The notes under the pieces were generated by a model. The model was given only the letters and a program-made list of their open reading frames with translations. It was not told where the DNA came from and searched no databases. Positions 4,011 to 63,393 of a stretch of 64,000 nucleotides of DNA are shown piece after piece. The translations under genes and the position numbers were made by a program. How positions within the stretch are numbered: the stretch's first letter is position 1; the number at the start of each line of letters is the position of its first letter. This stretch comes from Burkholderiales bacterium (GTDB taxonomy: Bacteria; Pseudomonadota; Gammaproteobacteria; Burkholderiales; SG8-39): assembly GCA_026417035.1 (NCBI GenBank), contig JAOAEA010000011.1, positions 7,902 through 71,901 on the forward strand, read 5' to 3'.

Positions 4011-5279
4011 GTGGCCATCGCGCTCTCGATCCTCTTCACGGTCGTCCTGCTCGTCATCGGCGTCCCGTTCTGGGTGTCGCTCGGCCTCGGCACGGTCGCG
4101 ATCCTCGCGTCGACCGGCGCCTTGCCGCTCACGCTGATCGGCGAAGCGCTCTTCGAGGGAGTGGACTCCTTCGCCCTCATCGCCATTCCGCTCTTCGTCC
4201 TCACCGGGGACGTGATGGTGCGCAGCGGGCTCGCCTACCGCCTGCTCGACTTCGCCGAAGCGACCTTCGGCTCGCTCCGCTCCGGATTCGGCACGTCCAC
4301 CGTGATGGGCTGCGGGCTGTTCGCCTGCATTTCCGGCTCGGATGCCGCCGACGCGGCGGCGATCGGGCGCATCACCATGGCCCGGCTGCAGGAGAAGGGC
4401 TACCCGCGGGCGTACGCGTGCGCGCTGGTCGCCTCGGGCGCGTGCACCGGGATCCTGATCCCGCCGTCGATCGCCTACATCATCCTCGGCCTGGTGCTCG
4501 GCATCTCGTCGGCGACGCTCTTTCTCGCCGCGTTCGTTCCCGGCGTACTGGTCCTGCTGGCGGTGATCGTCACCAACGTCCTGGTGAACCGCGCGCGCGG
4601 CTACGAGCGCTCGACCGATGCGTTCTCGTTCGCGCGCTGGCTGCGCGCGCTCAACGACGCCAAGTGGGCGCTCTCCATCCCGGTCATCATCCTCGGCGGC
4701 ATCTACTCGGGCATCTTCACGCCCACCGAATCGGCCGCGGTCGCGGTCGCCGTCGCGATCGTCATCGGCATGGTGCAGCGCCGCCTCACGCTCGCGCAGT
4801 TCCCGGCGATGCTCGGCACGAGCGCGCGCGTGTGCGGCGTCGTGCTGCCGATCATCGCGGTGGCGCTGCTCTTCTCGCAGGCGCTGACCGTCGTCAACGT
4901 GCCGCAGGACTTCGTCGCGTGGGTGCTCTCGTTCGGAACGGGGCCTGGCGCGGTCGTGTTCCTGATGCTGGTCATCCTGGTGGTCGCGGGGATGTTCATG
5001 GAGACCGGGCCCAACATCGTGGTGCTCGGGCCACTGCTCTTCCCGCTCGCGCGCGAGATCGGCATGGACCCGGTGCATTTCTGCGTATTCATGATCACGA
5101 CGCTCGGGCTCGGCTTCATCACCCCGCCCTTCGGGCTCAACCTCTTCGTGATGGCGGGGCTCACGCGCACGCCGATCACCGCGATCGCGCGGCACGCGTT
5201 CCCGTTCGTGATCGCGCTCCTCATCGTGTCCGCGATCATCGGCTACGTGCCGGCGATCTCGACGTTCATGCTCAAGTGA
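4011..5279 (+). CDS. TRAP transporter large permease (DctM family)
   Basis: 422-aa polytopic membrane protein typical of DctM. Follows DctQ after a 15-bp gap. Confidence 0.92.
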   Translation: MAIALSILFTVVLLVIGVPFWVSLGLGTVAILASTGALPLTLIGEALFEGVDSFALIAIPLFVLTGDVMVRSGLAYRLLDFAEATFGSLRSGFGTSTVMGCGLFACISGSDAADAAAIGRITMARLQEKGYPRAYACALVASGACTGILIPPSIAYIILGLVLGISSATLFLAAFVPGVLVLLAVIVTNVLVNRARGYERSTDAFSFARWLRALNDAKWALSIPVIILGGIYSGIFTPTESAAVAVAVAIVIGMVQRRLTLAQFPAMLGTSARVCGVVLPIIAVALLFSQALTVVNVPQDFVAWVLSFGTGPGAVVFLMLVILVVAGMFMETGPNIVVLGPLLFPLAREIGMDPVHFCVFMITTLGLGFITPPFGLNLFVMAGLTRTPITAIARHAFPFVIALLIVSAIIGYVPAISTFMLK

Positions 5280-17955: not shown

Positions 17956-19809
17956 ATGGCGAGCTTTCGACTCGACCGATCAGGGATGCTGGTGCGCCGC
18001 ATCGCCTGCTCTCTGGGCGCGCTGGCGGTCGTCGGGCTCGGCCTGGCGACCGCGGCCGCGCGGGCCGCGGTGATCACGTCTCAGGCCGTTGCGACGTTCA
18101 CCGACTCCAAGGCACCGTACCTCGGGGCGTTCACGAAGAAGAGCTTCCCGATCTACTCGGACAGCTTCGCCGATTCGATCGGCGGGATCTATGCCGGCGT
18201 CGGCGCGCAGGCGTCCGGCAGCGTGTCCGCGACGCTGGAGGGGTTCGTCGAGGCATTCTGGCTCCCCACTTACAGCTACGCGTACTCGTCGAAGAACAGC
18301 ATCCAGCTGAACTGGGCGGGCGAGAAGATGTCGGTCGGCGACTCGTTCTTCCTGCAGGCGAGCGCGATACCCGTGGGCTGGGGCAAGGTCACGCTGGAAG
18401 ACGAAGGCTTCAAGGGGGGATTCGGGCTGCGCGAGAGCGTGATCGCCGCAGCGAGCGCAAAGGGCTGTCTCGGCGGGTGCCTGGAGCTCGGGCTGAGCCT
18501 GGCGCTCAAGCAGGAGCAGGAGCTTGCCACGCTGCTTGGCGGCGCGCTGATGGTTCTCGGGCAGAACGTCGGTAACGTCCTGCCCTACTCCTACACGTCG
18601 GCGGACAACACGCTCTCGCTCGACATCCACGCGCCGAACTTCGCCGCGCCGCTGAATCAGGTCGCGGGCAAGACCGGACCGGCGACCCACACGAGCACCC
18701 AGACGCTCGCGACCGGCGCCGTGGACGTCGCGCAGCTCATCGCCAACCTGATCGGCCTGCCGGTGCCGCTATCCGGCAGCGTGGGCGGCTTCGGGTACAC
18801 GCTGATCGAGGCGCTGGTCGGTCTCGGGCTGGAGCTCGAGCGCTGGTTCAAGCTCGAGGCCGCCAAGCTCTACACGTCGCTCGCGTTCTCGGCGCCGGTC
18901 GTCATCTCGACCGATGGGGTGAACTGGAGCGAGGCGAAAACGTCGTTCACCCCCGAGCCGGGCACGGCCTACGAGATTCGGCCCGTGAACGACGCGACGA
19001 CGCTCGGGATCGTGCCGTCTTACGGGTTCTACACGAACCTCGAGGCGAGTCTCGCCCTGGTTCCGTTCGTCTTCGGGTCGGTGCGCGCACTCGAGGTCGA
19101 TGGACACGGCGTGAGCCTCGGCCCGCTCCTCAAGGACTCGATCAAGCAGCCGCTCGCTCACTTCGAGCTCGACTCGTACCAGACGCAGCGGAGCAAATGG
19201 GTTACGGGCCAACCGATCAACCTGACCTTCGACCCGCTCGTTGCCGACGCGAACAACCAGCCGGTCGGCACGCTCTGCCCGAACCTCGGCGACTGTCTCG
19301 CCACCGGCTTCATTCCGATCACGACAGCCGGGGACGGCGGGTGGCGCTCGAGCGAGATCGTCCTGGCGAGGAATCTGACGGGCGCGTGTCTCCTCGGCAT
19401 CCTCGACGACCCCGACAGCCCCTGTGACCTCGATCCGGTATTCGTGCCACTCCGCTATGACTTCCGCGAGGGTGCGAGCCGCATCGATCCGATCGAATTC
19501 ACTCCGCGGTACGACGTGCTCCGATCGATCCTCGGCGCCGTGGACCCTGTTCCCGGACCCGAGTCAGATGCCTGGATCATCGAGGCGAGCGTACGCGACG
19601 CGATCGCGCGGCTCGGCTTCGATCCCGATGCCGACGCGTTCCCCAGGCGCGCGCCGTGGGGCGATCCGGCCCCGACCGCGCCGATCGTCGGAGATACGGT
19701 CTACCTGGTGAATATCACCGCCGTACCCGAACCGAGCACGTTCGCGCTGCTCGCGGTGGCCGTTCTGGTGTTGCTCCACCCACGCGCGAGACTCGCCATC
19801 CGGCCCTGA
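17956..19809 (+). CDS. PEP-CTERM sorting-domain secreted protein (617 aa, otherwise uncharacterised)
   Basis: RBS GGGAAGGGAG and an N-terminal signal peptide (IACSLGALAVVGLGLATAAARA). The C-terminus VPEPSTFALLAVAVLVLLHPRARLAIRP is PEP motif + TM helix + basic tail. S/T/G/Y-rich composition. Confidence 0.85.
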   Translation: MASFRLDRSGMLVRRIACSLGALAVVGLGLATAAARAAVITSQAVATFTDSKAPYLGAFTKKSFPIYSDSFADSIGGIYAGVGAQASGSVSATLEGFVEAFWLPTYSYAYSSKNSIQLNWAGEKMSVGDSFFLQASAIPVGWGKVTLEDEGFKGGFGLRESVIAAASAKGCLGGCLELGLSLALKQEQELATLLGGALMVLGQNVGNVLPYSYTSADNTLSLDIHAPNFAAPLNQVAGKTGPATHTSTQTLATGAVDVAQLIANLIGLPVPLSGSVGGFGYTLIEALVGLGLELERWFKLEAAKLYTSLAFSAPVVISTDGVNWSEAKTSFTPEPGTAYEIRPVNDATTLGIVPSYGFYTNLEASLALVPFVFGSVRALEVDGHGVSLGPLLKDSIKQPLAHFELDSYQTQRSKWVTGQPINLTFDPLVADANNQPVGTLCPNLGDCLATGFIPITTAGDGGWRSSEIVLARNLTGACLLGILDDPDSPCDLDPVFVPLRYDFREGASRIDPIEFTPRYDVLRSILGAVDPVPGPESDAWIIEASVRDAIARLGFDPDADAFPRRAPWGDPAPTAPIVGDTVYLVNITAVPEPSTFALLAVAVLVLLHPRARLAIRP

Positions 19810-19951
19810 CCGCCGCGCGTGCGCGACGCGCGCCGCGCGCTAGGCCGCCGGTGCGGCCTCCGCCTCCCGGCTCGCGCGCTTGCGCTCGTGCCTGGACGAA
19901 CAAGGGGGCAAGCGCCCCCTTGTTGATCCCCCAAGCCAGTGGCGGCGCGCG

Positions 19952-21784
<1,833 letters not shown>

Positions 21785-44972: not shown

Positions 44973-45341
44973 ATGAAACTGCGCGCGATCGTGCTGGCGG
45001 GCGTGCTGGGCTCCGCGCTCGCGGGCTGTGCGGGGATGGACGCGAAGGACGTCAAGGTCGTGGAGCTCGGCGCCGTGCCGCAGGGTTCCTACGATCTCGT
45101 GGCGCGCGTGTGGACCGAGACGTGGATGACACCCTTCTGGATTCCGTGGTACGCCACCGAAGCGGACGCGATGGAGGGCCTCAAGTCGCAGGCCGCGCTG
45201 CGCGGGGCCGACGCGGTCGCGAACGCCGTGTGCATTCCGGCGCCGACGGCCTGGGGCGGCACGCGGTACTTCTGCCACGGCGACGCGGTGAAGATGCGGC
45301 CCGCGGCGGACCGCCCGTTCTTCACGCCGCCGAAGACCTGA
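44973..45341 (+). CDS. Hypothetical lipoprotein (122 aa)
   Basis: Lipobox LAGC after a hydrophobic signal. RBS AGGGGA. Confidence 0.65.
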   Translation: MKLRAIVLAGVLGSALAGCAGMDAKDVKVVELGAVPQGSYDLVARVWTETWMTPFWIPWYATEADAMEGLKSQAALRGADAVANAVCIPAPTAWGGTRYFCHGDAVKMRPAADRPFFTPPKT

Positions 45342-45381
45342 GCGCGCGAAGCGCGCGCCGCACCGTCCCGGGAGAGGGCCC

Positions 45382-45867
45382 ATGACCGGCCAGGCCACCG
45401 TCGACCTCCTTCGCCAGACCAAGCTCGCGGTCGAGCTCGACGACGCCGAAGCGAAAGTGCTCGCCGAGCGCGTGACCGTGCGCGACCTCGCCGACGGCGA
45501 GATCCTGTGCGACGAGGGCAGGAGCGACGACCGCGTGCACGCGATCCTCTCCGGCGCGATCGCGGTCGCGAAGCGCCAGCCCGACGGCGCGTATCTCAAC
45601 CTGAACGTGCTCACCACGGGCGACCTCGTCGGCGAGCTCGCGTTCATGGACGGCAAGCCCCACTACGCCGCGTTGAAGGCTCTGGGGCCGACCCGCGTGC
45701 TCAGCCTCTCGCGCGAGGCGCTCGAGCAGCTCCTCGACACGCACCCGCGCGCCGTCTACCACGTGATGCGCGCGATCTTCCGGGTCGTGCACGCCATCCT
45801 CCACCGGATGGGCGCGCAGCAGTCCGAGCTCACCAACTACATCTACAAGCTGCACGGGAAGTACTAG
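45382..45867 (+). CDS. Stand-alone cyclic-nucleotide-binding domain protein
   Basis: CNB beta-barrel signature GDLVGELAFMDGKPHYAALKA. No DNA-binding or other output domain in the 161 aa. Confidence 0.75.
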   Translation: MTGQATVDLLRQTKLAVELDDAEAKVLAERVTVRDLADGEILCDEGRSDDRVHAILSGAIAVAKRQPDGAYLNLNVLTTGDLVGELAFMDGKPHYAALKALGPTRVLSLSREALEQLLDTHPRAVYHVMRAIFRVVHAILHRMGAQQSELTNYIYKLHGKY

Positions 45868-46127
45868 GACAAGGGAAGCTCTGCGCCGCTCGCCGTAGGG
45901 ATCGGGGCTTCCGCGGAAGCGGGGGGCGAAGGGCGACCATTCCCTGTCCGGACATTCCCCGGCGCCGCGCGGCGTCCGCCGGCTGGCGTGGGGGCACCCG
46001 TCCGGAGCGTTGGGCCGGGTTACAATGAGCGCCCCTTCCGGCCCGGCCCGACAGGAACTCGCGGTCGCCGCGCCGGTCATTCGAACCATAGCCGGCGTCC
46101 CCGCGCCCCGGGCGCGAACCGTCACCC

Positions 46128-46571
46128 GTGAAACCCCGTCACAAGCGCATCGCGATCATCGTCGGCGGGCTCGCCGCGCTCGGCGCCGCCGCGGCGCTGG
46201 TGTTGAACGCGTTCCAGTCGAATCTGGTGTTCTTCTTCAGCCCGAGCCAGGTGCAGGCGAACGAGGCGCCGAAGGACCGGACTTTCCGCATCGGCGGGCT
46301 CGTCGAGGCGGGCAGCGTGAAACGCGAGGGCGTCACCGTGCAGTTCAAGGTGACCGACACCGCGCACGCCATCCCGGTGGTGTACACGGGCATCCTCCCC
46401 GACCTCTTCCGCGAGGGCAAGGGCGTGGTCGCGCAAGGGCGCTTGGGGCCCGACGGCGTTTTCCGCGCTTCCGAGGTCCTCGCAAAGCACGACGAGAACT
46501 ACATGCCGCCCGAGGCCGCGCACGCGGTCGAGCAGGCGGCCAAGGCGCAGAAGACCCTCAAGGCCCAGTGA
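46128..46571 (+). CDS. ccmE: Cytochrome c maturation haem chaperone CcmE
   Basis: N-terminal TM anchor and [12 protein letters not shown] haem-binding His motif. Confidence 0.93.
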
Positions 46572-46584
46572 GGGCGCGGCGGCG

Positions 46585-48564
46585 ATGATCCCGGAGATCG
46601 GACACTTCGCGCTCATTCTCGCCCTGCTGCTCGCGCTGGTGCAGGGCGTTTTCCCGATCGCCGGCGCGGCGAAGCGCATCCCTGCGTGGATAGCCGTCGC
46701 GCGGCCCGCGGCGCTCGGCCAGTTCCTGTTCGTCCTCACGGCGTTCCTCGCGCTCGCGTGGTCGTTCGCGACCGACGATTTCTCGGTGCTGAACGTCGCG
46801 ACGAACTCGAACACCCGCACCCCGTTGCACTACAAGCTCGCGGCGAGCTGGGGATCGCACGAGGGCTCGATGCTCCTCTGGTCGCTCATGCTCGCGGCGT
46901 GGACCTTCGCGGTCGCGCTCTTCTCGCGGCACCTGCCGCGGGAGATGGCCGCGCGCGTGATCGGCGTGATGGGGCTCGTGAGCGCCGGTTTCCTCCTCTT
47001 CATCCTCACCACTTCCGATCCGTTCGACCGGCTCCTCCCGCCGGCGCCGGAGGGGCGCGACCTGAACCCGCTCCTCCAGGATCCGGGGATGGTGTTCCAC
47101 CCGCCGATGCTCTACATGGGCTACGTGGGCTTCTCGGTCGCGTTCGCGTTCGCCATCGCCGCGCTGCTCGGCGGCCGGCTCGACGCGACCTGGGCGCGCT
47201 GGTCGCGCCCCTGGACCACCGTCGCGTGGAGCTTCCTCACCGGCGGCATCGCGCTCGGCAGCTGGTGGGCCTACTACGAGCTCGGCTGGGGCGGATGGTG
47301 GTTCTGGGATCCGGTCGAGAACGCGTCGTTCATGCCGTGGCTCGTCGGCACCGCGCTCATCCACTCGCTCGCGGTCACCGAGAAGCGCGGGAGCTTCAAG
47401 AGCTGGACGGTGCTGCTCGCGATCTTCGCGTTCTCGCTTTCGCTCCTCGGCACCTTCCTCGTGCGTTCCGGGGTGCTCACGTCCGTGCACGCGTTCGCGA
47501 CCGACCCGAGGCGCGGCGTCTTCATCCTCGGCTTCCTCGTGCTCGTCATCGGCGGGTCGCTCGCGCTCTACGCATGGCGTGCGCCGCGCGTCGGCCTGGG
47601 CGGGAAGTTCGAGGCCGTGTCGCGCGAATCGATGCTGCTGGTGAACAACGTGCTGCTGGTGGTGGCGGCCGGCTCGGTCATGCTCGGCACGCTCTATCCG
47701 CTGTTCCTGGACGCGCTCTCCGGCGGGCAGAGCAAGATCTCCGTCGGGCCGCCCTACTTCGACACCGTGTTCGTGCCGATCATGGCGCCGCTCGTCTTCC
47801 TGATCGGCGTCGGCCCGATCGTGCGCTGGAAGGCCGACACGGTGCTCGACCTCTGGACGAAGCTCAAATGGGCGCTCGCGGTGGCGGTCGTGAGCGCGGC
47901 GCTCCTGCCCTTCACGCTCGGCCGGTGGTCGCCCTTCGTCGCGTTCGGCCTCGCGCTCGCGCTGTGGATCGCGGCGGCCTCCGTCGTCGCGCTCCGGGAG
48001 CGGGTGAGGAACGTCCCCGCCGGCGAGCGCCTCGCGCGCCTCGCGCGCCAGCCGCGCGCTTTCTGGGGCATGGTGCTCGCGCACCTCGGCGTCGCGGTCT
48101 TCATCGCCGGCGTGACGCTCGTGAAGGGCTACGAGGTCGAGCGCGACGTGCGCATGGACGTCGGCGACACGGTCGCGATCGGCGACTACACCTTCCGCTT
48201 CCTCGGCACGCGCGACATCACCGGGCCGAACTACCGCGGCACCCGCGGCGAGGTCGAGGTGACGAAGGCGGGGCGGCCGGTCGAGCGGCTCTACCCGGAG
48301 AAGCGCATCTACCACGCGCAGCAGATGCCGATGACCGAGGCGGCCATCGACACCGGGTTCTTCGGCGACCTCTACGTGTCCCTGGGCGACCCGGTCGAGG
48401 GCAGCGCGTGGACGGTGCGCGTGTACGCGAAGCCGTTCGTCACCTGGATCTGGGGCGGCGCGTTCCTGATGGCGCTCGGCGGCTTCCTCGCGATCTCCGA
48501 CCGGCGCTACCGGTTCGCGGCCGCCCGCGAGGGCGCGGCGCTCGCGGGCCGCGCAACGGCGTGA
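46585..48564 (+). CDS. ccmF: Cytochrome c haem lyase subunit CcmF
   Basis: WWD motif WGGWWFWDPVENAS. 659-aa polytopic protein. Confidence 0.95.
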   Translation: MIPEIGHFALILALLLALVQGVFPIAGAAKRIPAWIAVARPAALGQFLFVLTAFLALAWSFATDDFSVLNVATNSNTRTPLHYKLAASWGSHEGSMLLWSLMLAAWTFAVALFSRHLPREMAARVIGVMGLVSAGFLLFILTTSDPFDRLLPPAPEGRDLNPLLQDPGMVFHPPMLYMGYVGFSVAFAFAIAALLGGRLDATWARWSRPWTTVAWSFLTGGIALGSWWAYYELGWGGWWFWDPVENASFMPWLVGTALIHSLAVTEKRGSFKSWTVLLAIFAFSLSLLGTFLVRSGVLTSVHAFATDPRRGVFILGFLVLVIGGSLALYAWRAPRVGLGGKFEAVSRESMLLVNNVLLVVAAGSVMLGTLYPLFLDALSGGQSKISVGPPYFDTVFVPIMAPLVFLIGVGPIVRWKADTVLDLWTKLKWALAVAVVSAALLPFTLGRWSPFVAFGLALALWIAAASVVALRERVRNVPAGERLARLARQPRAFWGMVLAHLGVAVFIAGVTLVKGYEVERDVRMDVGDTVAIGDYTFRFLGTRDITGPNYRGTRGEVEVTKAGRPVERLYPEKRIYHAQQMPMTEAAIDTGFFGDLYVSLGDPVEGSAWTVRVYAKPFVTWIWGGAFLMALGGFLAISDRRYRFAAAREGAALAGRATA

Positions 48565-48583
48565 CGCCAGACGGAGCCGAACG

Positions 48584-49120
48584 GTGAAGCGCGCGCTCGT
48601 CTTCGCGATCCCGCTCGCGATCTTCCTCCTCCTCGCGGTCTTCCTGCTGCGCGGCCTCGGCCTCAACCCGCGGGAGGTGCCCTCGCCGCTCATCGGCAAG
48701 CCCGCGCCCGCCTTCCAGCTCGCGACGCTCGCCGACCCGGCGAAGGCGTTCTCGCAGAAGGACATGGCCGGGAGGGTGTGGCTCCTCAACGTGTGGGCCT
48801 CGTGGTGCGTCGCCTGCCGCCAGGAGCACCCGCTGCTCGTGGAGGTCGCGCGGAAGAACGTGCTCCCCATCGTCGGGCTGAACTACAAGGACGATCCGGC
48901 CGACGCGAAGGCCTGGCTCGCCCAGTTCGGCGACCCCTACCTCCTCTCCGTCGCCGACCGCGACGGGCGGGTGGGCATCGACTTCGGCGTCTACGGCGTG
49001 CCCGAGACCTTCCTCATCGACAAGACCGGGACGATCCGCTTCAAGCACATCGGGCCGATCACGCCCGAGGCGTGGGAGAAAAAGATCCTGCCACTGGTGC
49101 GTGAGCTGGAGAAGGCGTGA
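48584..49120 (+). CDS. ccmG: Thiol:disulfide oxidoreductase DsbE/CcmG
   Basis: WASWCVACRQEHP thioredoxin motif and GVYGVPETFLID. Confidence 0.93.
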   Translation: MKRALVFAIPLAIFLLLAVFLLRGLGLNPREVPSPLIGKPAPAFQLATLADPAKAFSQKDMAGRVWLLNVWASWCVACRQEHPLLVEVARKNVLPIVGLNYKDDPADAKAWLAQFGDPYLLSVADRDGRVGIDFGVYGVPETFLIDKTGTIRFKHIGPITPEAWEKKILPLVRELEKA

Positions 49121-49310
49121 TGCGAGCGCATCGAGAGTGGGGGAGCTGCGAGGGGGTGTGCCCCCTCGCTCGCGCGGGCATCCTGCCACTGGTGCGTGAG
49201 CTGGAGAAGGCGTGATGCGAGCGCATCGAGAGTGGGGGAGCTGCGAGGGGGCCTGCCCTCTCGTTCCCGCGGCCATCCTGCCGCTGGTGCGCGAGCTGGA
49301 GAAGGCGTGA
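49085..49310. repeat. Tandem repeat: 2 x 95-bp units plus a terminal 36-nt copy, each starting with the last 36 nt of ccmG
   Basis: ATCCTGCC(A/G)CTGGTGCG(T/C)GAGCTGGAGAAGGCGTGA occurs at 49085, 49180 and 49275. The 59-nt spacers carry TGGGGGAGC and a G5/C5 hairpin. Confidence 0.92.
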
Positions 49311-49807
49311 GACGCTTCGTCGCAGCCCTTCTGCTCGCTGCCGGCGCCGCGGCTGCGCAGCCGCCCGCCGACCCGCGCGCGCCCGCCGAGACGGCGAAGG
49401 CGGCGCTTCCCACGCCCAACGATCCGGTCGCGGCGAAGCGCGCGGTGGCGCTCGGCAACGAGCTCCGCTGCCTCGTGTGCCAGAACCAGTCGATCGAGGA
49501 ATCGAACGCGGAGCTGGCGGTGGACCTGCGCCGGCAGATCCGCGAGCAGATCGCCCAGGGCAAGTCCGACCGCGAGATCATCGACTACATGGTCGCCCGC
49601 TACGGCGACTTCGTCCTCTACCGCCCGCCGTTCAAGGCCACCACCGCGCTGCTCTGGATCGGCCCGTTCCTCCTCCTCGCCGTCGGCCTCGCGGCGGCGC
49701 GCCGGGTGATCGCGGCGCGCCGGGCGCGCGCCGACGAGCGTCCTCTCACCGAAGCCGAGCGCCGCGAGGCCGAGCGCCTGCTCGCCGGCGCACGCGAGAG
49801 CGAATGA
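49307..49807 (+). CDS. ccmH: Cytochrome c maturation protein CcmH
   Basis: LRCLVCQNQSIEESN motif. GTG start overlapping the third ccmG-end copy (GTGA). The N-terminal extension of ORF 49196..49807 lies inside the repeat and is rejected. Confidence 0.88.
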   Translation: MRRFVAALLLAAGAAAAQPPADPRAPAETAKAALPTPNDPVAAKRAVALGNELRCLVCQNQSIEESNAELAVDLRRQIREQIAQGKSDREIIDYMVARYGDFVLYRPPFKATTALLWIGPFLLLAVGLAAARRVIAARRARADERPLTEAERREAERLLAGARESE

Positions 49808-51045
49808 CTGCCTTCGTCGCCATCGCCGTCTTCATGACGGCCGTCGCCCTCGCCCTCGTCGTGCGTCCGCTGCTCGCCGCGCGCCGTCCCGCGGCCGACG
49901 TCGGGCTCGCGCAATCCAACCTCGCGATCCTGCGCGCGCAGCGCGCCGAGCTCGACGCCGACCTCGAGGCCGGGACGCTCTCGGAGACGCAGCATCGCGA
50001 GGCCGTGGCGGAGCTCGAACGCCGCGCGCTGGAGGAGGCGCGGCCCGCCGCGGGCGAAGCCCTCCGGCCGGCGCCCCGGGGCGCAGCGACCGCGGCTGCG
50101 CTCGCAGTGGGGATCCCGCTGGTCGCGGGTCTCCTGTACTGGCAGTTGGGCACCCCGCTCGCCTTGTCGCCCGAAGCGCAGCAGGCCGCGGCGCACGCGG
50201 GCGGCGAGGGGCGCCAGTTCACGCAGGAAGAGATCGACGCGATGATCGCGCGGGTCGAGGAGCGGCTTGCCAGGTCACCGGACGACGCGCAGGGCTGGGC
50301 GGTGCTCGCGCGCACCTATTACACGCTGCAGCGCTTCCCCGAGGCGGTGCGCGCGTTCGCCGAGCTCGCGCGGCTCGCGCCCGACGACGCCGACGTCCTC
50401 ACCGATTACGCCGACGCGCTCGCCATGGCGCAGGGGCGCAGCCTCGCGGGCAAGCCGATGGAGCTGGTGCAGCGCGCGCTCGCGGCCGACCCGAAGCACT
50501 GGAAGGCGCTCGCGCTCGCGGCGAGCGACGCGATGAACCGCAAGGACTACAAGACCGCGCTCGGCTACTGGGAGCGCCTCGCCGCCGTCGTGCCGCCCGG
50601 CTCCGAGATGGCCCAGGCCGTCGCGTCGAACATCGCGGAGGCGCGCGAGGCGGGCGGGATCAGGGCGCCACCGGCCGCCAAGGCCGCGCCGGTGCCGCGC
50701 GCCGCGACGGTGGGAGGGACGGTGAGCCTCGCCCCGGCGCTCGCGGCGAGGGCCAGCCCCGAGGACACGGTGTTCATCTTCGCGCGGCCGGCGCAGGGCG
50801 CCCGCATGCCGCTCGCGATCGTGCGCAAGCAGGTGAAGGACCTGCCCGTGTCGTTCTCGCTCGACGATTCGATGGCGATGGCGCCGAACATGAAGCTCTC
50901 CGACTTCCCGGAGGTCGTCGTCGGCGCCCGCGTCGCGAAGGGCGGCACCGCGACCTCGCAGCCGGGCGACCTCGAGGGCCTCTCGGCTCCGGTGAAGACG
51001 GGCGCGACGGGCGTCGCGGTCGTCATCGACCGGGTGCTGCCCTAG
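49804..51045 (+). CDS. ccmI: Cytochrome c biogenesis protein CcmI (CycH), TPR-containing
   Basis: N-terminal TM MTAFVAIAVFMTAVALALVV and TPR region (GWAVLARTYYTLQRFPEAVRAF). ATGA overlap with ccmH. Confidence 0.85.
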   Translation: MTAFVAIAVFMTAVALALVVRPLLAARRPAADVGLAQSNLAILRAQRAELDADLEAGTLSETQHREAVAELERRALEEARPAAGEALRPAPRGAATAAALAVGIPLVAGLLYWQLGTPLALSPEAQQAAAHAGGEGRQFTQEEIDAMIARVEERLARSPDDAQGWAVLARTYYTLQRFPEAVRAFAELARLAPDDADVLTDYADALAMAQGRSLAGKPMELVQRALAADPKHWKALALAASDAMNRKDYKTALGYWERLAAVVPPGSEMAQAVASNIAEAREAGGIRAPPAAKAAPVPRAATVGGTVSLAPALAARASPEDTVFIFARPAQGARMPLAIVRKQVKDLPVSFSLDDSMAMAPNMKLSDFPEVVVGARVAKGGTATSQPGDLEGLSAPVKTGATGVAVVIDRVLP

Positions 51046-51059
51046 GGAATGTCTGAACC

Positions 51060-51079
51060 AAGGGGGACACATCCCCCTT
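51060..51079. terminator. G5/C5 hairpin between convergent ccmI and phaC (likely bidirectional terminator / REP-like)
   Basis: AAGGGGGA-CACA-TCCCCCTT, with an imperfect outer extension GTCTGA...TCAGAC (51051..51097). Confidence 0.5.
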
Positions 51080-51170
51080 TGGCCGCCGATGTCAGACGAA
51101 GCCCTGATCCATTCGGGGAATCGATCAGAGCTTCCCTGGCGATCCGCCCGGGCGGGGCCTCCCCGACGGC

Positions 51171-52865
51171 TCAGGTCTCGAGGACATAGGCGCCTGGCGC
51201 GGCGGCGAGCGCGGGGTGGCTCGCGGTCGCGACCGGACGGGCGGGGACCATCTCGCCGCAGAGCGGCGCGAGCCACGCGACCCAGTCCTCCCACCAGCTG
51301 CCCGGCGTCTCGGTGGTGCGCGCGAGCCACGACTCGACCGTGTCGGTGATGCGCGCCTCGCCGGCGCGGAAGCTGCGCTTCGCCGGCGTGACCGGCGGGT
51401 TGACGATGCCCAGGACGTGGCCAGCGCTCGAGCGGACGTAGCGCTTCGGGCCCGCCGCGAAGTTCGCGATCCGGAAGGTCTGCTTCCAGGGCGCGATGTG
51501 GTCGTCCTGGCAGCCGACCGCGTAGAGCGGCTGCGCGATCCGCCCGAGGTCGATCGGCGTGCCGGCGATCGCGAGAGCGTCGGGCTCGACGAGGCGGTTG
51601 GCGAGGTAGAGCTCGCGCAGATACCAGGTGTGCATCGCGGCGGGCATGCGCGTGGTGTCCATGTTCCAGAAGAGGACGTCGAGCGGGCGCGGCGCCTCGC
51701 CGTAGAGCCAGCCGCGCACCACGTATTGCCAGATGAGGCTGTTCGAGCGCAGCAGCCGGAACGCGGCGGCCATCTCCTTCCCGTCGAGGTAGCCCTTGCG
51801 CGCCATCGCCTCCGCGAGGTGCGCGACGGTCGATTCGTCGAGGAACACCTCGATGTCCCCCGGGCTCGCGAAATCGACCAGCGTGGTGAAGAGCGTCCAG
51901 TGCGGCACCGGCGCGTGCAAGGGCGCGGCTCGCGCGTTCGCCCAGGCGAGGTACATCGCGAGCGCCGTGCCGCCGAGGCAGTAGCCCACCGCGTGCACCT
52001 CGCCCGAGCCGCTCACGCGGCTCGCGGTCTCGACGAGCTTCGCGATCCCGTCCTCGATGTATGCGTCGAACGTGACGTCGCGCATCTCGGGCGTCGGGTT
52101 CTTCCAGCTCGCGATGTAGACGTCGAAGCCGCGGTCCAGGAGGAAGCGCACCAGGCTGCGCCCCTCGGCGAGGTCGAGGATGTAGAACTTGTTGATCCAG
52201 GGCGTCGCGATCGCGACCGGGATGCGGTGCACGCGGTCGCGCGTCGCGCGGTAGTGGATCACCTCGAGGAGGCGGTTGCGGAAGACCACCGCGCCGGGCG
52301 CCGTCGCGAGGTCCTTGCCGACGTGGAAGTCGCGCGGGTCGGTGAGCCGCACCGTGCCCGCCTCGAAGTCCGCGAGGAAATTGCGCCACCCTGCCGCGAG
52401 GCTCGCGCCGCCCGTCTCCACCGCCTTGCGCAGCGCCACCGGGTTCGTCCAGAGGAAATTGGTCGGCGCGGCGGCGTTCAGCCACTTCCGCCACCAGAAC
52501 GCGGCCTGCCGGCGCTGCTTCTCCGAGAGGCCGGGGGTCCGGTAGAGCGCGTCCTGGACGTGGTGGGTGAAGGCGAGGTAGCCCTCCTTCAGGAGGTCCC
52601 ACGCGACGTGCTCGCGCCAGACGGGGTCGGCGAAGCGCTGGTCGTCCGGGTGCGGCTCCACCGGATCGGCGCTCGGCAGCCCGGCGGCCCGGAGCCACGC
52701 GTGCCGTTGCAGCTCGAGCGCGAGACCCGCGAACTGCGCGCCGAGGTCGGCGAGCTCGCGCGGGTGCGCGAGCCACGCGAGCTGCGCGTGCAGCACCGGC
52801 GTCATCATCCCGTAGGGGTCGAGCGCGCGCTCGAGGAAGCTCGAGGCGGAAGCAGTGGAGCTCAT
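51171..52865 (-). CDS. phaC: Class I poly(R)-hydroxyalkanoate synthase
   Basis: Lipase box GYCLGG and conserved PhaC N-terminal and alpha/beta-hydrolase blocks. Start at ATG 52865 (MSSTASASS). Confidence 0.92.
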   Translation of the reverse strand: MSSTASASSFLERALDPYGMMTPVLHAQLAWLAHPRELADLGAQFAGLALELQRHAWLRAAGLPSADPVEPHPDDQRFADPVWREHVAWDLLKEGYLAFTHHVQDALYRTPGLSEKQRRQAAFWWRKWLNAAAPTNFLWTNPVALRKAVETGGASLAAGWRNFLADFEAGTVRLTDPRDFHVGKDLATAPGAVVFRNRLLEVIHYRATRDRVHRIPVAIATPWINKFYILDLAEGRSLVRFLLDRGFDVYIASWKNPTPEMRDVTFDAYIEDGIAKLVETASRVSGSGEVHAVGYCLGGTALAMYLAWANARAAPLHAPVPHWTLFTTLVDFASPGDIEVFLDESTVAHLAEAMARKGYLDGKEMAAAFRLLRSNSLIWQYVVRGWLYGEAPRPLDVLFWNMDTTRMPAAMHTWYLRELYLANRLVEPDALAIAGTPIDLGRIAQPLYAVGCQDDHIAPWKQTFRIANFAAGPKRYVRSSAGHVLGIVNPPVTPAKRSFRAGEARITDTVESWLARTTETPGSWWEDWVAWLAPLCGEMVPARPVATASHPALAAAPGAYVLET

Positions 52866-53081
52866 GGTCGCGGTCCGGAGGACACGGAAACGGGGTCGCG
52901 GGGCCACTGCACCGCTCTTTCCCGATCCCGATTTCAGAATAGCCGCCCGCGAAGGGACCGCGCGGGGAAGGTTGTGCCGAACGTGCGCGATTGCGCGTGC
53001 CCGGAGAGGGTCCCGGACGCGCCAGTGCCGGTCGCCCGGGCAGGCGGCGACTTCCCGACGCCCGCGCGCGCGGCCCGGGCG

Positions 53082-55996: not shown

Positions 55997-56001
55997 GCGT
56001 G

Positions 56002-56859
56002 TCACTCCGGAGTGGTGTTGAGGAAGAACATCGCCGCGAGCGCGGGGCTCGGCTGGCCGAAGCCGCCGAACCAGCGCCCGTAGATCTCGCCGATCGCGCC
56101 CGAGCGGTAGATCTGCGCGAGCGCGCGGTTGACCGCGAGCCGGAAGTCGGCGTCGTTTCGGCGCATCATCAGCCCGTAGGGCTCGAACGAGAAGTCCTCG
56201 TCGATGAGGTAGAGCTTCGCCGCGTCCTTCGCCTTCACCGCGAGCCCGATCAGCACGATGCGGTCGTTCGCGTAGGCGTCGAGCCTGCCCGACTCGACCG
56301 CCGCGAGCCCGTCGAGCTCGCCGGTCACCGTCACCACCTCGGCGTTGATGAGGCGCTGCTTCAGCGCTTCGCGCAGCCGCGCCTCGGTGGTGGTGCCCGC
56401 GGTGACGCCGATCTTCTTGCCCGCGAGGTCGGCGAAGCGCTTGATGCCGGTGTCGGTGCGCGCGATCACGCTCGCGCCGTCGACGAAGATCATGTTCGAG
56501 AAGTCCACCTCGCGCATGCGCCCGAGGGTGGCCGTCGTGGTGCCGCACTCGAGGTCCACCTCGCCCTTCACGACCGCGGGGATGCGGCTCTCGGCGGTGA
56601 CCGGCACCCACTTGATGTTCAGGTCCGCGAGCTTGAGGTCGCGCTGGATCGACGCGGCGACGCGCTTGCAGAGGTCCACCGAGTAGCCGTTCGGCTGCTT
56701 GTCCCGGTCGAGGAAGGAGAAGGGCAGCGACGTCTCGCGGTAGCCGAGCGCGATCGTCTTCGTGTCACTCACCTTCTTCAGCGTGCCGGTGAGCGGCGCC
56801 TGTGCGGCAGCCGTCGAGGCCGCGGCGACGAGCGCGAGCGCGAGCAGGGTGCGTTTCAT
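56002..56859 (-). CDS. Family-3 (amino-acid type) ABC transporter substrate-binding protein, orphan
   Basis: Signal peptide. IALGYRETSLPFSF, GYSVDLC, VDLECGTTT are typical of GltI-like SBPs. No permease or ATPase gene nearby. Confidence 0.85.
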   Translation of the reverse strand: MKRTLLALALVAAASTAAAQAPLTGTLKKVSDTKTIALGYRETSLPFSFLDRDKQPNGYSVDLCKRVAASIQRDLKLADLNIKWVPVTAESRIPAVVKGEVDLECGTTTATLGRMREVDFSNMIFVDGASVIARTDTGIKRFADLAGKKIGVTAGTTTEARLREALKQRLINAEVVTVTGELDGLAAVESGRLDAYANDRIVLIGLAVKAKDAAKLYLIDEDFSFEPYGLMMRRNDADFRLAVNRALAQIYRSGAIGEIYGRWFGGFGQPSPALAAMFFLNTTPE

Positions 56860-62468: not shown

Positions 62469-62505
62469 GCGAAACCAGCCGCGGCGGCGAGGCGCCGCCA
62501 GCGTG

Positions 62506-63393
62506 CTACTCGGGGATGGCGTTCAGGAGGAACATCGCCTGCAGCAGCGGCCCCGGGGTGCCGAGCGCCCCGAACCAGCGGTTGTGGATCGGCGCGATCT
62601 CGCCCGAGCGGTACAGGCGCGCGAGCGTGCGGTCCACCGCGAGCCGGAAATCCGGGTCGCCGCGCCGCAGGACGAGCGAATAGGGTTCGTAGGAGAAGAG
62701 CTCCTCCGCGAGCCGGAACGCGGCCGCGTCCTTCGCGGTCATCGCGAGCCCGATCAGGATCACGCGGTCGGACGCGTACGCATCGGCGCGCCCCTCGCGC
62801 AGGGCCGCAAGCCCTTCCTGGTGGTCCTTCACGCCGACGTACGCGGGCTTCGCGAGCGCCTGCTGCAGCGCGCGCTCGAGCGCCTTCTCGGTGCTGGTGC
62901 CGGGGATGATGGCGACGCGCTTGCCGTCGAGGTCCTTCAGCGTCGCGATGTTCGCGCCGAGCCGGGTGAGGAAGCTCCCGCCGTCCACGAACGTGACCAG
63001 GCTGAAGTCCACCCGCTCGCGCCGGCCGAGCGTGTTGGTGGTGGAGCCGCACTCGAGGTCCACCTGTCCGCTCGCGACCTTCGCGAGCCGGTCCTCGACG
63101 GTCACCGCCTCCCACTTCACCTGGAGGTTCGCAAGCCCGAGGTCCTTCTTCAGCGTCTCCACCACGGCGCGGCAGAGGTCGATCGAGTAACCCGCCGGCT
63201 CGCGCCCCGGCGCGGCGAACGAGAAGGGCACCGACGCGACGCGATAGCCGAGCGTCACCGTGTTCGTGCGCTTGATTTTCTCGAGCGTGCCCGTTGGCGC
63301 GCCAGGGCCGCCGGGAGCCGTCGCGCAGCCGGCGGCGAGCGCGCACGCGGCGAGCGCGGCCATCGCCCGGATCGAAGCGGGGAAGCAAACCAT
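62506..63393 (-). CDS. Family-3 ABC transporter substrate-binding protein, orphan paralog of 56002..56859
   Basis: Roughly half of positions are identical to the other SBP by eye (TLGYRVASVPFSF, GYSIDLC, VDLECGSTT, identical-style C-terminus MFLLNAIPE vs MFFLNTTPE). Lipobox-like LAAGC. Start at ATG 63393, or 63363. Confidence 0.85.
   Translation of the reverse strand: MVCFPASIRAMAALAACALAAGCATAPGGPGAPTGTLEKIKRTNTVTLGYRVASVPFSFAAPGREPAGYSIDLCRAVVETLKKDLGLANLQVKWEAVTVEDRLAKVASGQVDLECGSTTNTLGRRERVDFSLVTFVDGGSFLTRLGANIATLKDLDGKRVAIIPGTSTEKALERALQQALAKPAYVGVKDHQEGLAALREGRADAYASDRVILIGLAMTAKDAAAFRLAEELFSYEPYSLVLRRGDPDFRLAVDRTLARLYRSGEIAPIHNRWFGALGTPGPLLQAMFLLNAIPE

Follow-up and report, generated by a model that had tools for sequence, protein, structure and literature searches.

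In a 64,000-nt stretch of DNA from a Burkholderiales bacterium (the window), the junction between ccmG and ccmH is occupied by a tandem array in which the last 36 nt of ccmG occur three times, with two 59-nt inserts between the copies (49085-49310). From comparison with related junctions, we consider it likely that a hairpin element inserted long ago into an overlapping ccmG|ccmH junction, that a 36-nt target was duplicated along with the insertion, that the window's lineage later gained one more unit of gene end plus element, and that translational coupling to ccmH was kept. The inserts match a dispersed family of hairpin elements, represented here by covariance model R1. The features of the junction are as follows.

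48584..49120, + strand: ccmG, DsbE-type thiol:disulfide interchange protein, 178 aa (ORF listing; homologues named CcmG/DsbE, Pfam Redoxin/AhpC-TSA)
49085..49120, + strand: copy A1, the working ccmG end (ILPLVRELEKA-stop) with GGAG and the GTG/ATG starting mini-ORF 1
49117..49215, + strand: mini-ORF 1, 32 codons from GTG (49117) or 31 from ATG (49120) (ORF listing)
49121..49179, + strand: insert 1, 59 nt (R1 match 49124-49180, 54.5 bits, E 1e-14), comprising 5′ filler (49121-49137), G-box TGGGGGA (49138-49144), the hairpin below and tail (49170-49179)
49148..49156 paired with 49161..49169, + strand: insert 1 hairpin, perfect 9 bp, loop TGTG (predicted fold)
49180..49215, + strand: copy A2, same sequence as A1; encodes the C-terminal part of mini-ORF 1 and provides the start of mini-ORF 2
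49212..49310, + strand: mini-ORF 2, 32 codons from GTG or 31 from ATG (ORF listing)
49216..49274, + strand: insert 2, 59 nt (R1 match 49219-49275, 45.5 bits)
49243..49251 paired with 49256..49264, + strand: insert 2 hairpin, nine RNA pairs including two G-U (predicted fold)
49275..49310, + strand: copy A3, the ancestral ccmG|ccmH junction, with Shine-Dalgarno-like GGAGAAGG and a GTG overlapping TGA (single-copy in 80 relatives and in L296)
49307..49807, + strand: ccmH, GTG start at 49307, product begins MRRFVAALLL (ORF listing; relatives' genes with Pfam CcmH)

Tandem Repeats Finder reported the array with a period of 95, 2.4 copies, 93% matches and a score of 396, the runner-up within the window scoring 73, which confirmed the triplicated gene end with 59-nt spacers described in a first-pass annotation of this DNA. 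The copies at 49085, 49180 and 49275 have identities of 100, 100 and 94%; as had been noted, the two differences (CCA/CCG and CGT/CGC) are both synonymous and lie in the third copy. Because the CcmG C-terminus and stop, as well as the ribosome-binding site and GTG start of ccmH, lie within the duplicated 36 nt, ccmG and ccmH are both whole, and the ccmH GTG at 49307 overlaps the TGA of a ccmG end copy. The first 36 nt of the spacer were found at two sites only in the window (0 matches in 100 shuffles), and the pattern TGGGGGA-N3-12-GGGGG occurred three times in the window, in both ccmG units and near typA, against 0.03 expected.

Units 1 and 2 are identical at 89 of 95 positions (53 of 59 within the inserts), and all six differences fall in the final 23 nt, as first described; this uneven pattern (0/72 versus 6/23) is not explained by simple duplication followed by uniform drift. 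The hairpin of unit 2 had been called destroyed, which holds for the perfect DNA palindrome and for nothing more: as sense-strand RNA (GCGAGGGGG/CCCUCUCGU) it keeps nine pairs, two of them G-U. Insert 2 is probably the older unit of the array, since its loop and tail resemble the single unit of relatives (L290).

The family to which the inserts belong consists of dispersed elements of ∼50 nt with the consensus CTGAnnTGGGGGAtnTAC-AAGGGGGC-loop-GCCCCCTT-GTTCG, found in some Burkholderiales-type Betaproteobacteria. In its members a G-box (TGGGGGA) precedes a 10-bp G5/C5 hairpin, whose outer stem shows compensatory changes, and a GTTCG tail follows. In the window, R1 scored 54.5 and 45.5 bits at the two ccmG units and 61.3 bits at typA (E 1e-16 to 5e-12), the model having been trained on 54 sequences that included ccmG unit 1 and the typA copy but not ccmG unit 2. 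Over the 54 copies, 98.7% of cells were paired, four pairs showed compensatory changes, and none of 500 shuffles equalled the observed covariation score; since the search pattern prescribed the G5/C5 core, only the outer pairs are informative. An outer CTGA/TCAG helix was only 64% paired and was therefore excluded from R1. The matches listed for the genome collection included more than 120 family stretches, and some betaproteobacterial MAGs had several each; the comparison loci, mostly MAG or metagenome contigs, were chosen by an exact-motif scan, and all counts refer to the matches listed. In contrast to these loci, 160 unrelated betaproteobacterial loci (about 1.0 Mb) contained no family match.

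The family also has a full-length form of ∼100-110 nt with 19-bp terminal inverted repeats (TAGGGAAnCGCTGATCAAG... / ...CTTGTTCAGnnnnTCCCTA) and TA/TAG flanks, which recurs many times in identical form within a genome. Both terminal repeats are missing from the ccmG and typA inserts, which are built from the core hairpin module and a variable filler (alignment A2). Rfam held no relevant family, either for the whole window at gathering thresholds or for 48900-49500 searched more permissively (E up to 10), and a BLAST search of plasmids with the full-length unit found nothing. Clustering of ORFs at 69 loci revealed no recurrent transposase, reverse transcriptase, integrase or other protein beside the copies, so that no insertion machinery was identified for the family. 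Literature searches for an element with these traits returned analogues only (MIRU, long-target-duplication insertions, REP, MITE, the IS1634 group and integrative elements), and the family is apparently undescribed.

A structure related to that at ccmG had been reported at typA, and this proved correct; a further member lies beside ccmI.

19830..19891, − strand: distal truncated copy of the typA end, 60/62 identical, with one synonymous and one non-coding difference
19889..19947, − strand: typA family member, 50-nt insert (19892-19941), hairpin ACAAGGGGGC-GCTT-GCCCCCTTGT (R1 61.3 bits, E 1e-16; fold z-score −3.85)
19942..20003, − strand: proximal copy of the typA end, last 16 codons plus TAG plus 10 nt beyond, within the working typA (19952-21784)
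51043..51140, − strand: ccmI-side member, a diverged full-length MITE-like unit of ∼98 nt with terminal inverted repeats (alignment A2 with units of other genomes)

At typA, the two 62-nt gene-end copies (97% identical) enclose a 50-nt hairpin spacer. No long duplication accompanies the ccmI-side copy; at its end, CTAGGG overlaps the ccmI stop TAG (51043-51045), and its hairpin (51060-51079) is a partial R1 match of 12.4 bits.

The first-pass annotation had suggested a search for other copies of the spacer flanked by duplicated gene ends, and such copies were found. In other genomes, among the matches listed, direct repeats flanked 24 of 90 family copies (27%) compared with 12 of 450 control positions (2.7%), and the flanking duplications comprised 18-84 nt of a gene terminus. 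Their geometry is polar: the second repeat copy begins 4-10 nt past the end of the R1 model, so that a truncated gene-end copy follows a short constant tail while the 5′ side varies; an intact gene or tRNA lay on the G-box (G-run) side in all of about 19 loci inspected by eye; and the end of the proximal repeat lies 0-12 nt, in one case 25 nt, past the coding boundary. The closest GTDB genome has the same 2.5-copy architecture, with period 124, at another gene. Inverted copies (7-18 nt) of the target start are found inside the filler at six loci. In about six loci the duplication covers the beginning of a gene encoded on the opposite strand, and neighbouring genes can have either orientation with respect to the family copy. 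One possible source of the duplications, a cDNA copied from the 3′ end of a terminated mRNA, would account for the constant tail and the variable 5′ end, but the opposite-strand gene starts do not fit it. Selection alone as the cause of the polarity leaves unexplained the absence of antisense copies downstream of a gene end on the tail side.

A manual tally of differences between gene-end copies across loci gave about 29 synonymous, 11 non-synonymous and 5 stop-to-stop changes. Since the differences are mostly synonymous, gene conversion or imported alleles fit the data and free decay of a dead copy does not.

The ccmG|ccmH junction of relatives, a comparison proposed at the outset, provided both filled and empty sites. 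Eighty relatives have a plain overlapping ccmG|ccmH stop/start, which confirms the earlier proposal that copy 3 is the ancestral junction. In the L290-L294 lineage (CcmG 87-88% identical) one unit is present at the same junction, identical in five contigs (two MAG assemblies and three metagenomes), with a sixth contig ending inside the junction. One unit is also present at this junction in L297 (CcmG 78%), and the L290-L294 and L297 units have related filler and tail. L296 (CcmG 83%) has a clean empty site, and in P0005 (CcmG 82%) the ccmG and ccmH gene calls overlap. Given the tree (L297,((L290,L296),window)), the filled junction is ancestral among these lineages and L296 represents a loss. 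As judged from units at the same junction in two related lineages, the insertion is old and inherited, kept across lineages with about 73% CcmF/G identity, and is no recent or unstable slip. Concerted evolution of the gene-end copies, attributable to gene conversion, is evident from comparison of the lineages: both copies read IMPMV in L290 and both working copies read ILPLV in the window. The insert can evidently also be removed cleanly by recombination between the copies, as shown once, in L296. Since the L290 lineage has a degenerate hairpin, selection on the element itself may be absent in some lineages.

How ccmH would be translated behind the array is suggested by the reading frames. As first described, each mini-ORF reads the next gene-end copy in the ccmG frame to its TGA, which the ORF coordinates bear out: mini-ORF 1 runs through insert 1 into A2 and its TGA overlaps the next GTG, and mini-ORF 2 runs through insert 2 into A3 and its TGA overlaps the ccmH GTG. 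The four units known from three lineages have periods of 95, 95, 128 and 122 nt, all 2 mod 3 (a chance of about 1 in 9 for three lineages), and although the filler carries indels of 27-33 nt, every GTGA-to-GTGA mini-ORF (32, 32, 43 and 41 codons) is open. Comparable read-through ORFs are present at other family loci. Open frames across GC-rich inserts of 60-90 nt are common by chance (the other two frames were open in 13 of 22), and the case for coupling therefore rests mainly on the 2-mod-3 periods and the stop/start geometry. These open units favor a coupling chain from ccmG through the mini-ORFs to ccmH, in which ribosomes ending ccmG would restart at GTGA/TGATG, translate through and thereby melt the hairpin, and stop at a TGA overlapping the next start, so that translation would be handed on to ccmH. 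We also considered the 5′ filler as a diverged ccmH start, but its likeness to the ATGCG...TCGA starts of relatives is too weak in GC-rich sequence.

An alternative explanation for the array is that the module of gene terminus plus element was imported or re-integrated by recombination rather than made in place, the proximal copy being a foreign allele. A single crossover of Campbell type could have integrated a small molecule, circular or ends-in, that carried the gene end and the element, or a relative's linear fragment ending just past the hairpin could have joined by homology on one side and illegitimately on the other; we regard import or re-integration as rather improbable. The intact gene on one side and the repeat boundaries match integrative elements that bring a replacement gene end; the copy differences are mostly synonymous, as between alleles (in L096, five differing codons and the stop codon, all synonymous, with L021, L081 and L052 similar); a duplication of the 3′ 51 nt of tRNA-Arg at one locus, from anticodon stem to CCA, resembles a classical att site; and L016 and L096 share a proximal-type gene end, with a GC-richer distal copy in L096 only. 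However, the units are just 60-143 nt and lack an integrase, homology-based capture would be needed separately at about 19 different targets, the first module at each gene is left without an origin, and lineage-specific substitutions shared by both ccmG|ccmH copies are more simply explained by gene conversion. It is also conceivable, though unlikely, that the element was kept for operon function, with an RNA hairpin between ccmFG and ccmHI setting the ratio of upstream to downstream products by 3′-end protection, partial termination or translation-dependent attenuation, and with tandem doubling strengthening the effect. REP hairpins are known to stabilize upstream mRNA segments, as at malE-malF. 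Retention of the insertion over the CcmF/G divergence given above, stem changes tolerated as G-U on the sense strand only (window unit 2 and L297) and the compensatory changes of the family hairpin agree with such a role. Against it, no U-tract follows the ccmG hairpins and a terminator scan of 45000-53000 was empty, the L290 lineage has two hairpin mismatches and a degraded G-box, L296 lost the insert with no visible compensation, and family copies lie in both orientations relative to neighboring genes.

Local replication slippage or unequal crossing-over of an ordinary ccmG-ccmH spacer, with no mobile element, would produce head-to-tail units with identical 72-nt stretches like those observed, and an event of this type probably lies behind the step from one unit to two in the window's lineage. 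As the primary event it is very improbable and already contradicted: the ancestral junction had no spacer, with stop/start overlap in 80 relatives and L296; the spacer is a scored member of a family dispersed at unrelated genes in other genomes; and typA has the same design with a different copy of the element. Slippage survives only as the secondary amplification step. Of the two readings offered in the first-pass annotation, the evidence favors the first, the insertion of a hairpin element at gene ends with long duplications being supported by the R1 scores (54.5 and 45.5 bits), the 18-84-nt duplications and the filled and empty sites, and an amplification selected for coupling fitting the secondary step (two units in the window versus one in L290-L294 and L297, with open 2-mod-3 frames) but not the primary event. 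Mis-assembly of the repeat number or of the whole structure is the least probable explanation. Exact look-ups of the window's own CcmG, CcmF and TypA proteins found no record, and two metagenome scans (one with a junction, one with a gene end) gave zero matches, but the same junction design recurs base for base in five independent contigs (two MAG assemblies, three metagenomes) and again in a third lineage, and analogous arrays lie in contigs of 0.3-2.3 Mb (L005, L205). With six differences between them, units 1 and 2 cannot be one identical repeat collapsed or expanded by the assembler.

For the preferred reading, insertion of a hairpin element with target duplication, we tentatively take the route to have been polar and linked to replication or recombination, and not a classical transposition with two ends; the candidates are template switching triggered by the hairpin, and a joining that is homologous on one side and illegitimate on the other. 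More speculatively, and with little confidence, we propose that the core module spreads by a polar, transposase-free mechanism that rebuilds the gene terminus during insertion and would define a new class of gene-sparing mobile element, overlapping coupled junctions included. Such a mechanism could be template switching triggered by the hairpin at the replication fork, or homologous invasion on one side only, from a DNA end protected by, or cleaved at, the hairpin. It is suggested by the fixed polarity, the constant 3′ tail as opposed to the variable 5′ filler, the inverted copies of target starts and the mostly synonymous differences.

Several known systems resemble parts of this structure. 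MIRU units of 40-100 bp, often tandem, lie between operon genes and carry a small ORF per unit whose ends overlap the neighboring stop and start (−4 spacing), with expression hardly disturbed (PMC12548453). The ccmG units are likewise tandem and intercistronic, with GTGA-to-GTGA ORFs in three lineages. MIRU belong to another phylum, however, a duplication of 18-84 nt of a flanking gene or a G5/C5 hairpin core is not described for them, and the mini-ORF ends here come from the duplicated gene end and not from the element. In insertion with long target duplication (Nobusato 2000; Furuta, Abe and Kobayashi 2010), DNA without mobility genes lies between direct repeats of >30 bp that are single-copy at the empty site, variable in length, often in contact with a gene 3′ end or tRNA, and able to drive later amplification (PMC2853133). 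Such insertion is known for restriction-modification genes. The 36-nt ccmG repeat, single-copy in L296 and 80 relatives, fits this description. In contrast, the inserts described are kilobase restriction-modification gene units from single events, whereas the ccmG insert is 59 nt, non-coding apart from the read-through mini-ORF, and a member of a ∼50-nt repeat family that is recurrent with fixed polarity.

REP, BIME and REPIN sequences share with the family short GC-rich imperfect palindromes in or between operons and a conserved single-stranded motif 5′ of the hairpin. The two large REP superfamilies are defined by a GTAG or CGTC tag at the foot of the palindrome, and the survey describing them makes no mention of target duplications (PMC3733652). 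The family lacks this tag, GGGGGAnnT... preceding its stem and TCG/TCAG following it (alignment A1), and no RAYT gene was found beside its copies (ORF clustering, 69 loci). We know of no target duplications for REPs. MITEs (Correia, ERIC, RUP) resemble the full-length form with its terminal inverted repeats, and the copy at 51043-51140 has such termini; in contrast, the ccmG and typA inserts lack the TAGGGAA.../...TCCCTA termini and are flanked by repeats of 36 and 62 nt. Both repeats far exceed the 2-14 bp of target duplications made by transposases. Insertion of IS1634-group elements (IS4 family) is reported to produce long variable direct repeats of tens to hundreds of bp. These are autonomous elements of 1.5-2 kb with a DDE transposase and terminal repeats, unlike the present family. 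The IS1634 group is not known to have a polarity towards gene ends. When e14 or phage 21 integrates in icd, or islands integrate in tRNA 3′ ends, the element-side copy restores the terminus of the target gene, the displaced original fragment stays on the far side, and most differences between the copies are synonymous. Such an element spans kilobases and encodes a site-specific integrase, which serves one target, in contrast to units of 60-143 nt, without integrase, at many targets. The tRNA cases of gene-end-replacing integration are discussed in PMC2853133.

Other candidates were rejected on inspection. No terminator-like site was found in 45000-53000, the tails after the ccmG hairpins being CGCUCGCG and CGUUCCCG and that of the typA copy only UUGUUCG, which speaks against a Rho-independent terminator. 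Defining integron attC as R″ RYYYAAC ... R′ GTTRRRY core sites bounding a folded site, the 3′ box (GTTCAG/GTTCGT) has C at position 4 where attC has a purine, and the 5′ box reads CTGAAG/CTGACT. The structure is not a CRISPR array, as its 'spacers' are 53/59 identical and its repeats are the coding end of ccmG. A diversity-generating retroelement does not fit either, the sole two differences (A/G and T/C) lying at synonymous third positions and not in a template-adenine pattern.

The usual view of small intergenic repeats such as REP, MITE and MIRU is that they insert where intergenic space is free. The family described here occupies gene junctions without free space, by bringing a copy of the gene end along, and translation appears to be relayed over the insert by a mini-ORF of conserved frame. 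If the family-wide pattern of long duplications, fixed polarity, concerted evolution and clean reversibility is true, the family would offer a natural system for studying the origin of long-target-duplication insertions and a second example, outside mycobacteria, of translational coupling that buffers an insertion. Annotators would then be warned to treat as a single phenomenon the short pseudo gene ends, the mini-ORFs and the tandem repeats found at operon junctions of these genomes. The family also offers variable-number tandem markers for uncultured Burkholderiales lineages.

Tandem Repeats Finder identified a single outstanding tandem array in the window, at 49085-49310 (period 95, 2.4 copies, 93% matches, score 396), with the runner-up repeat scoring only 73. 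The array lies at the junction of two genes:

48584-49120: ccmG, the last 36 nt of which are copy 1 of the repeated gene end
GTG 49307: the ccmH start, which overlaps the third TGA

As the first-pass annotation had claimed, the 36-nt end of ccmG occurs in three copies, that at 49180 being identical to copy 1 and that at 49275 (copy 3) having two synonymous third-position differences. The two 95-nt units (a 36-nt copy plus a 59-nt insert) are likewise identical at 89 of 95 positions, all six differences falling within the last 23 nt, and 32-codon ORFs (49117-49215 and 49212-49310) each traverse the next copy in the frame of ccmG, stopping at its TGA. The same differences had been said to destroy the unit-2 hairpin; this did not hold, since none of the nine stem pairs is lost in the RNA fold, where two are G-U, and the hairpin is weakened rather than destroyed. 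The spacer had no further occurrence in the window and none in shuffles. Elsewhere in the window, two 285-nt stretches (55997-56281 and 62501-62785) that are 72% identical and 6.5 kb apart are probably paralogous coding segments.

Each 36-nt copy carries the CcmG C-terminus and stop together with GGAGAAGG and GTG (copies 1 and 2 have an additional ATG), so that, judged from sequence, the duplication restores both genes. The ccmH frame is open upstream through insert 2 to GTG 49196 (203-aa ORF, 49196-49807), and an N-terminally extended CcmH could therefore come from automatic annotation; both the relatives and the signal-peptide-like MRRFVAALLL favour 49307 as the true start.

The insert belongs to a dispersed family, and a related structure had been reported at typA, where we found 62-nt copies of the typA end (19942-20003 and 19830-19891) enclosing a 50-nt hairpin spacer. 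The ccmG and typA spacers have in common TGGGGGA-N6-AGGGGG-loop-CCCCCT, found three times in the window versus 0.03 expected. Scanning the species-representative genome collection yielded at least 120 stretches matching the spacer motif; among the matches listed, many were from Betaproteobacteria/Burkholderiales MAGs, often several per genome. The consensus of 54 aligned copies is CTGAnn-TGGGGGA-TnTAC-AAGGGGGC-loop-GCCCCCTT-GTTC, with a 10-bp hairpin that is 98.7% paired and shows compensatory changes in four outer or closing pairs. A covariance model derived from this alignment gave 61.3 bits for the typA copy and 54.5 and 45.5 bits for the two at ccmG, and had no other full-length match in the window. 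No Rfam family matched. A profile search found no family copies in 160 ccmG- or typA-centred loci of other Betaproteobacteria (∼1.0 Mb), and a generic terminator of the clade was rejected on this count. Next to typA, a convergent 617-aa ORF (17956-19809) ends in a PEP-CTERM-like sorting signal (VPEPSTFALLAVAVLVLL...R), its stop being separated from the distal copy of the typA end by 20 nt.

In some genomes, a MITE-like unit of ∼105 nt, which has 19-bp terminal inverted repeats and is flanked by TA/TAG, contains the core as its right half. The window contains one such copy:

51043-51140, minus strand: a diverged full-length MITE-like family member between ccmI and the convergent PHA synthase gene

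The terminal CTAGGG of this copy overlaps, or supplies, the ccmI stop TAG (51043-51045); the copy has no long flanking duplication. A module of similar make-up (TGGGGGAGTCCAGAGGGGG-loop-CCCCCTCTGG), after which more G5 runs often come and whose stems covary between lineages, is repeated in genomes of Chloroflexota/Dehalococcoidia, Clostridia (Flavonifractor, Oscillospiraceae), Fibrobacter and Spirochaetes (fetched loci L001, L003, L004, L007, L009, L018, L032, L037, L090 and others).

Long duplications of gene termini are a trait of the family. Among 90 non-redundant copies from the loci fetched by then, 24 were flanked by direct repeats (score ≥14), compared with 12 of 450 random control positions, which supports the earlier reading of a hairpin element that inserts at gene ends; the window's own subfamily (GAGCTnCGAGGGGG) has five members, each so flanked. 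The repeats span 18-84 nt, and the downstream copy begins 4-10 nt past the model end while the upstream copy lies anywhere between 0 and 55 nt from the G-box (TGGGGGA). What is duplicated differs by locus: a co-oriented gene contributes its end, an opposite-strand gene its start and, in one case, a tRNA-Arg its 3′ 51 nt. In every one of ∼19 loci inspected, the intact gene is on the G-box side and the proximal repeat stops 0-12 nt (once 25) past the coding boundary. In six loci the variable filler includes an inverted copy (7-18 nt) of the repeat start. No recurrent protein adjoins the family copies, and differences between repeat copies were mostly synonymous; tallied manually, they comprised ∼29 synonymous, 11 non-synonymous and 5 stop-to-stop changes. 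The ccmG design recurs in CAZKHE01, the closest GTDB genome, where a sugar-phosphate isomerase-like gene has its end in triplicate, along with two copies of the element (period 124, 2.5 copies, 97%).

At L005 (CAVQUV010000021.1, ∼5060-5089), a family copy sits immediately 3′ of an entire tRNA-Arg(CCG) gene, and after the element comes a perfect repeat of the tRNA 3′ 51 nt, from anticodon stem to CCA; the layout resembles attL/attR of integrase-driven islands, but the insert is merely ∼70 nt. L205 (CAVTJG010000009.1, a 2.29-Mb contig, ∼4800-5000) has three tandem units of the first ∼30 nt of an lgt-like gene plus the element (period ∼70 nt) upstream of the opposite-strand gene, with unit differences concentrated in the hairpin top and tail, as in the window. 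Two orthologous pairs come from different genomes: L030/L201 have element plus duplication at one shared site behind a MoxR-like gene, with stems diverged through compensatory changes, and L016/L096 both have the element, the distal gene-end copy being present in L096 and absent in L016. In L096 the distal and proximal copies differ at five codons and the stop codon, all synonymously.

In 80 relatives (CcmG 59-78% identical) the ccmG stop and ccmH start plainly overlap or abut (ATGA, GTGA, TGATG), which bears out the suggestion that copy 3 is the ancestral junction. Closer relatives, found by protein search and examined on their fetched contigs, have both filled and empty junctions. In the L290 lineage (CcmG 87-88% identical), two identical 36-nt ccmG ends enclose a 92-nt insert ahead of ccmH (period 128); this junction is identical in five contigs (two MAG assemblies, three metagenomes), and a sixth contig ends within it. 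In the L297 lineage (78%), a 27-nt repeat flanks a 95-nt insert (period 122). These inserts match the family profile (20.4 and 29.7 bits, respectively) and have the tail/repeat joint (...GC|ATC...) and related filler in common with the window. These junctions exclude assembly artefact as the source of the design. The L296 lineage (83%) has a clean single-copy GTGA junction, and an 82% lineage has overlapping ccmG/ccmH gene calls. Because a tree built by neighbour joining from CcmF (C-terminal 300 aa) and CcmG has the topology (L297,((L290,L296),window)), the filled state is ancestral to this clade, and the insert was lost precisely in L296, as repeat-to-repeat recombination would do. Relatives have one unit fewer than the window lineage, whose unit 2 is like theirs in loop and tail and is thus probably the original. 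Both L290 copies have the same lineage-specific changes, including two amino-acid changes (IMPMV vs ILPLV), which shows that gene-end copies evolve in concert by gene conversion; such conversion also accounts for much of the synonymous excess between copies.

The four units in the three lineages (95, 95, 128 and 122 nt) are all 2 mod 3, the value that places the GTGA start in the next copy's ccmG frame; indels between lineages are 27, 33 and 6 nt, and all four unit ORFs (32, 32, 43 and 41 codons) are open. At other loci, where positions come partly from manual sequence reading, ORFs from at or near the upstream stop run across the element and enter the distal copy in frame with the gene, with a suitable start -1 to +16 nt from the stop in 7 of 11 cases; where a gene start had been duplicated, the ORF beginning at the displaced start terminates +1, +1, +5, -21 and -29 nt from the real one. 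GC-rich DNA of this kind commonly contains open frames (in 13 of 22 cases the other two frames were open). We infer that ribosomes would pass from ccmG across the hairpins to ccmH by termination and reinitiation, a relay that would preserve coupling and hold the hairpins melted. The ccmG hairpins are not called terminators because they have no U-tract 3′ and the terminator scan found none; an RNA-stabilising or attenuating role is possible.

The MITE's transposase is an unlikely agent of insertion, since the terminal repeats that mark the full-length form are missing from core-only copies. The constant 3′ tail, variable 5′ filler, inverted target snippets, long variable-length duplications and strict polarity favour a polar process tied to replication or recombination, candidates being hairpin-provoked template switching, or a fragment ending at the hairpin that would be joined by homology on one side and illegitimately on the other. 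The cDNA of a terminated mRNA end would fit the gene-end cases but fails for opposite-strand gene starts. A live rival to such a polar process is import, through a single crossover, of a pre-formed module of gene end plus element, which would account for both the polarity and the allele-like differences but leaves the module's first origin unexplained.

We found no description in the literature of the G-box/hairpin family or its gene-end duplications. The defining tag of REP superfamilies (PMC3733652) is absent from the family, and the terminal repeats expected of MITEs are missing at ccmG and typA. The closest counterpart in function is the mycobacterial MIRU, tandem intercistronic units with an internal ORF coupled to the neighbouring gene at -4 spacing (PMC12548453), and in structure it is 'insertion with long target duplication', a process known from restriction-modification gene units (PMC2853133). 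The elements represent a variation on known kinds of small intergenic repeat, and what is unusual about them is reproducible: target duplications are long and polar, the copies evolve in concert, and the relay ORFs keep their frame.
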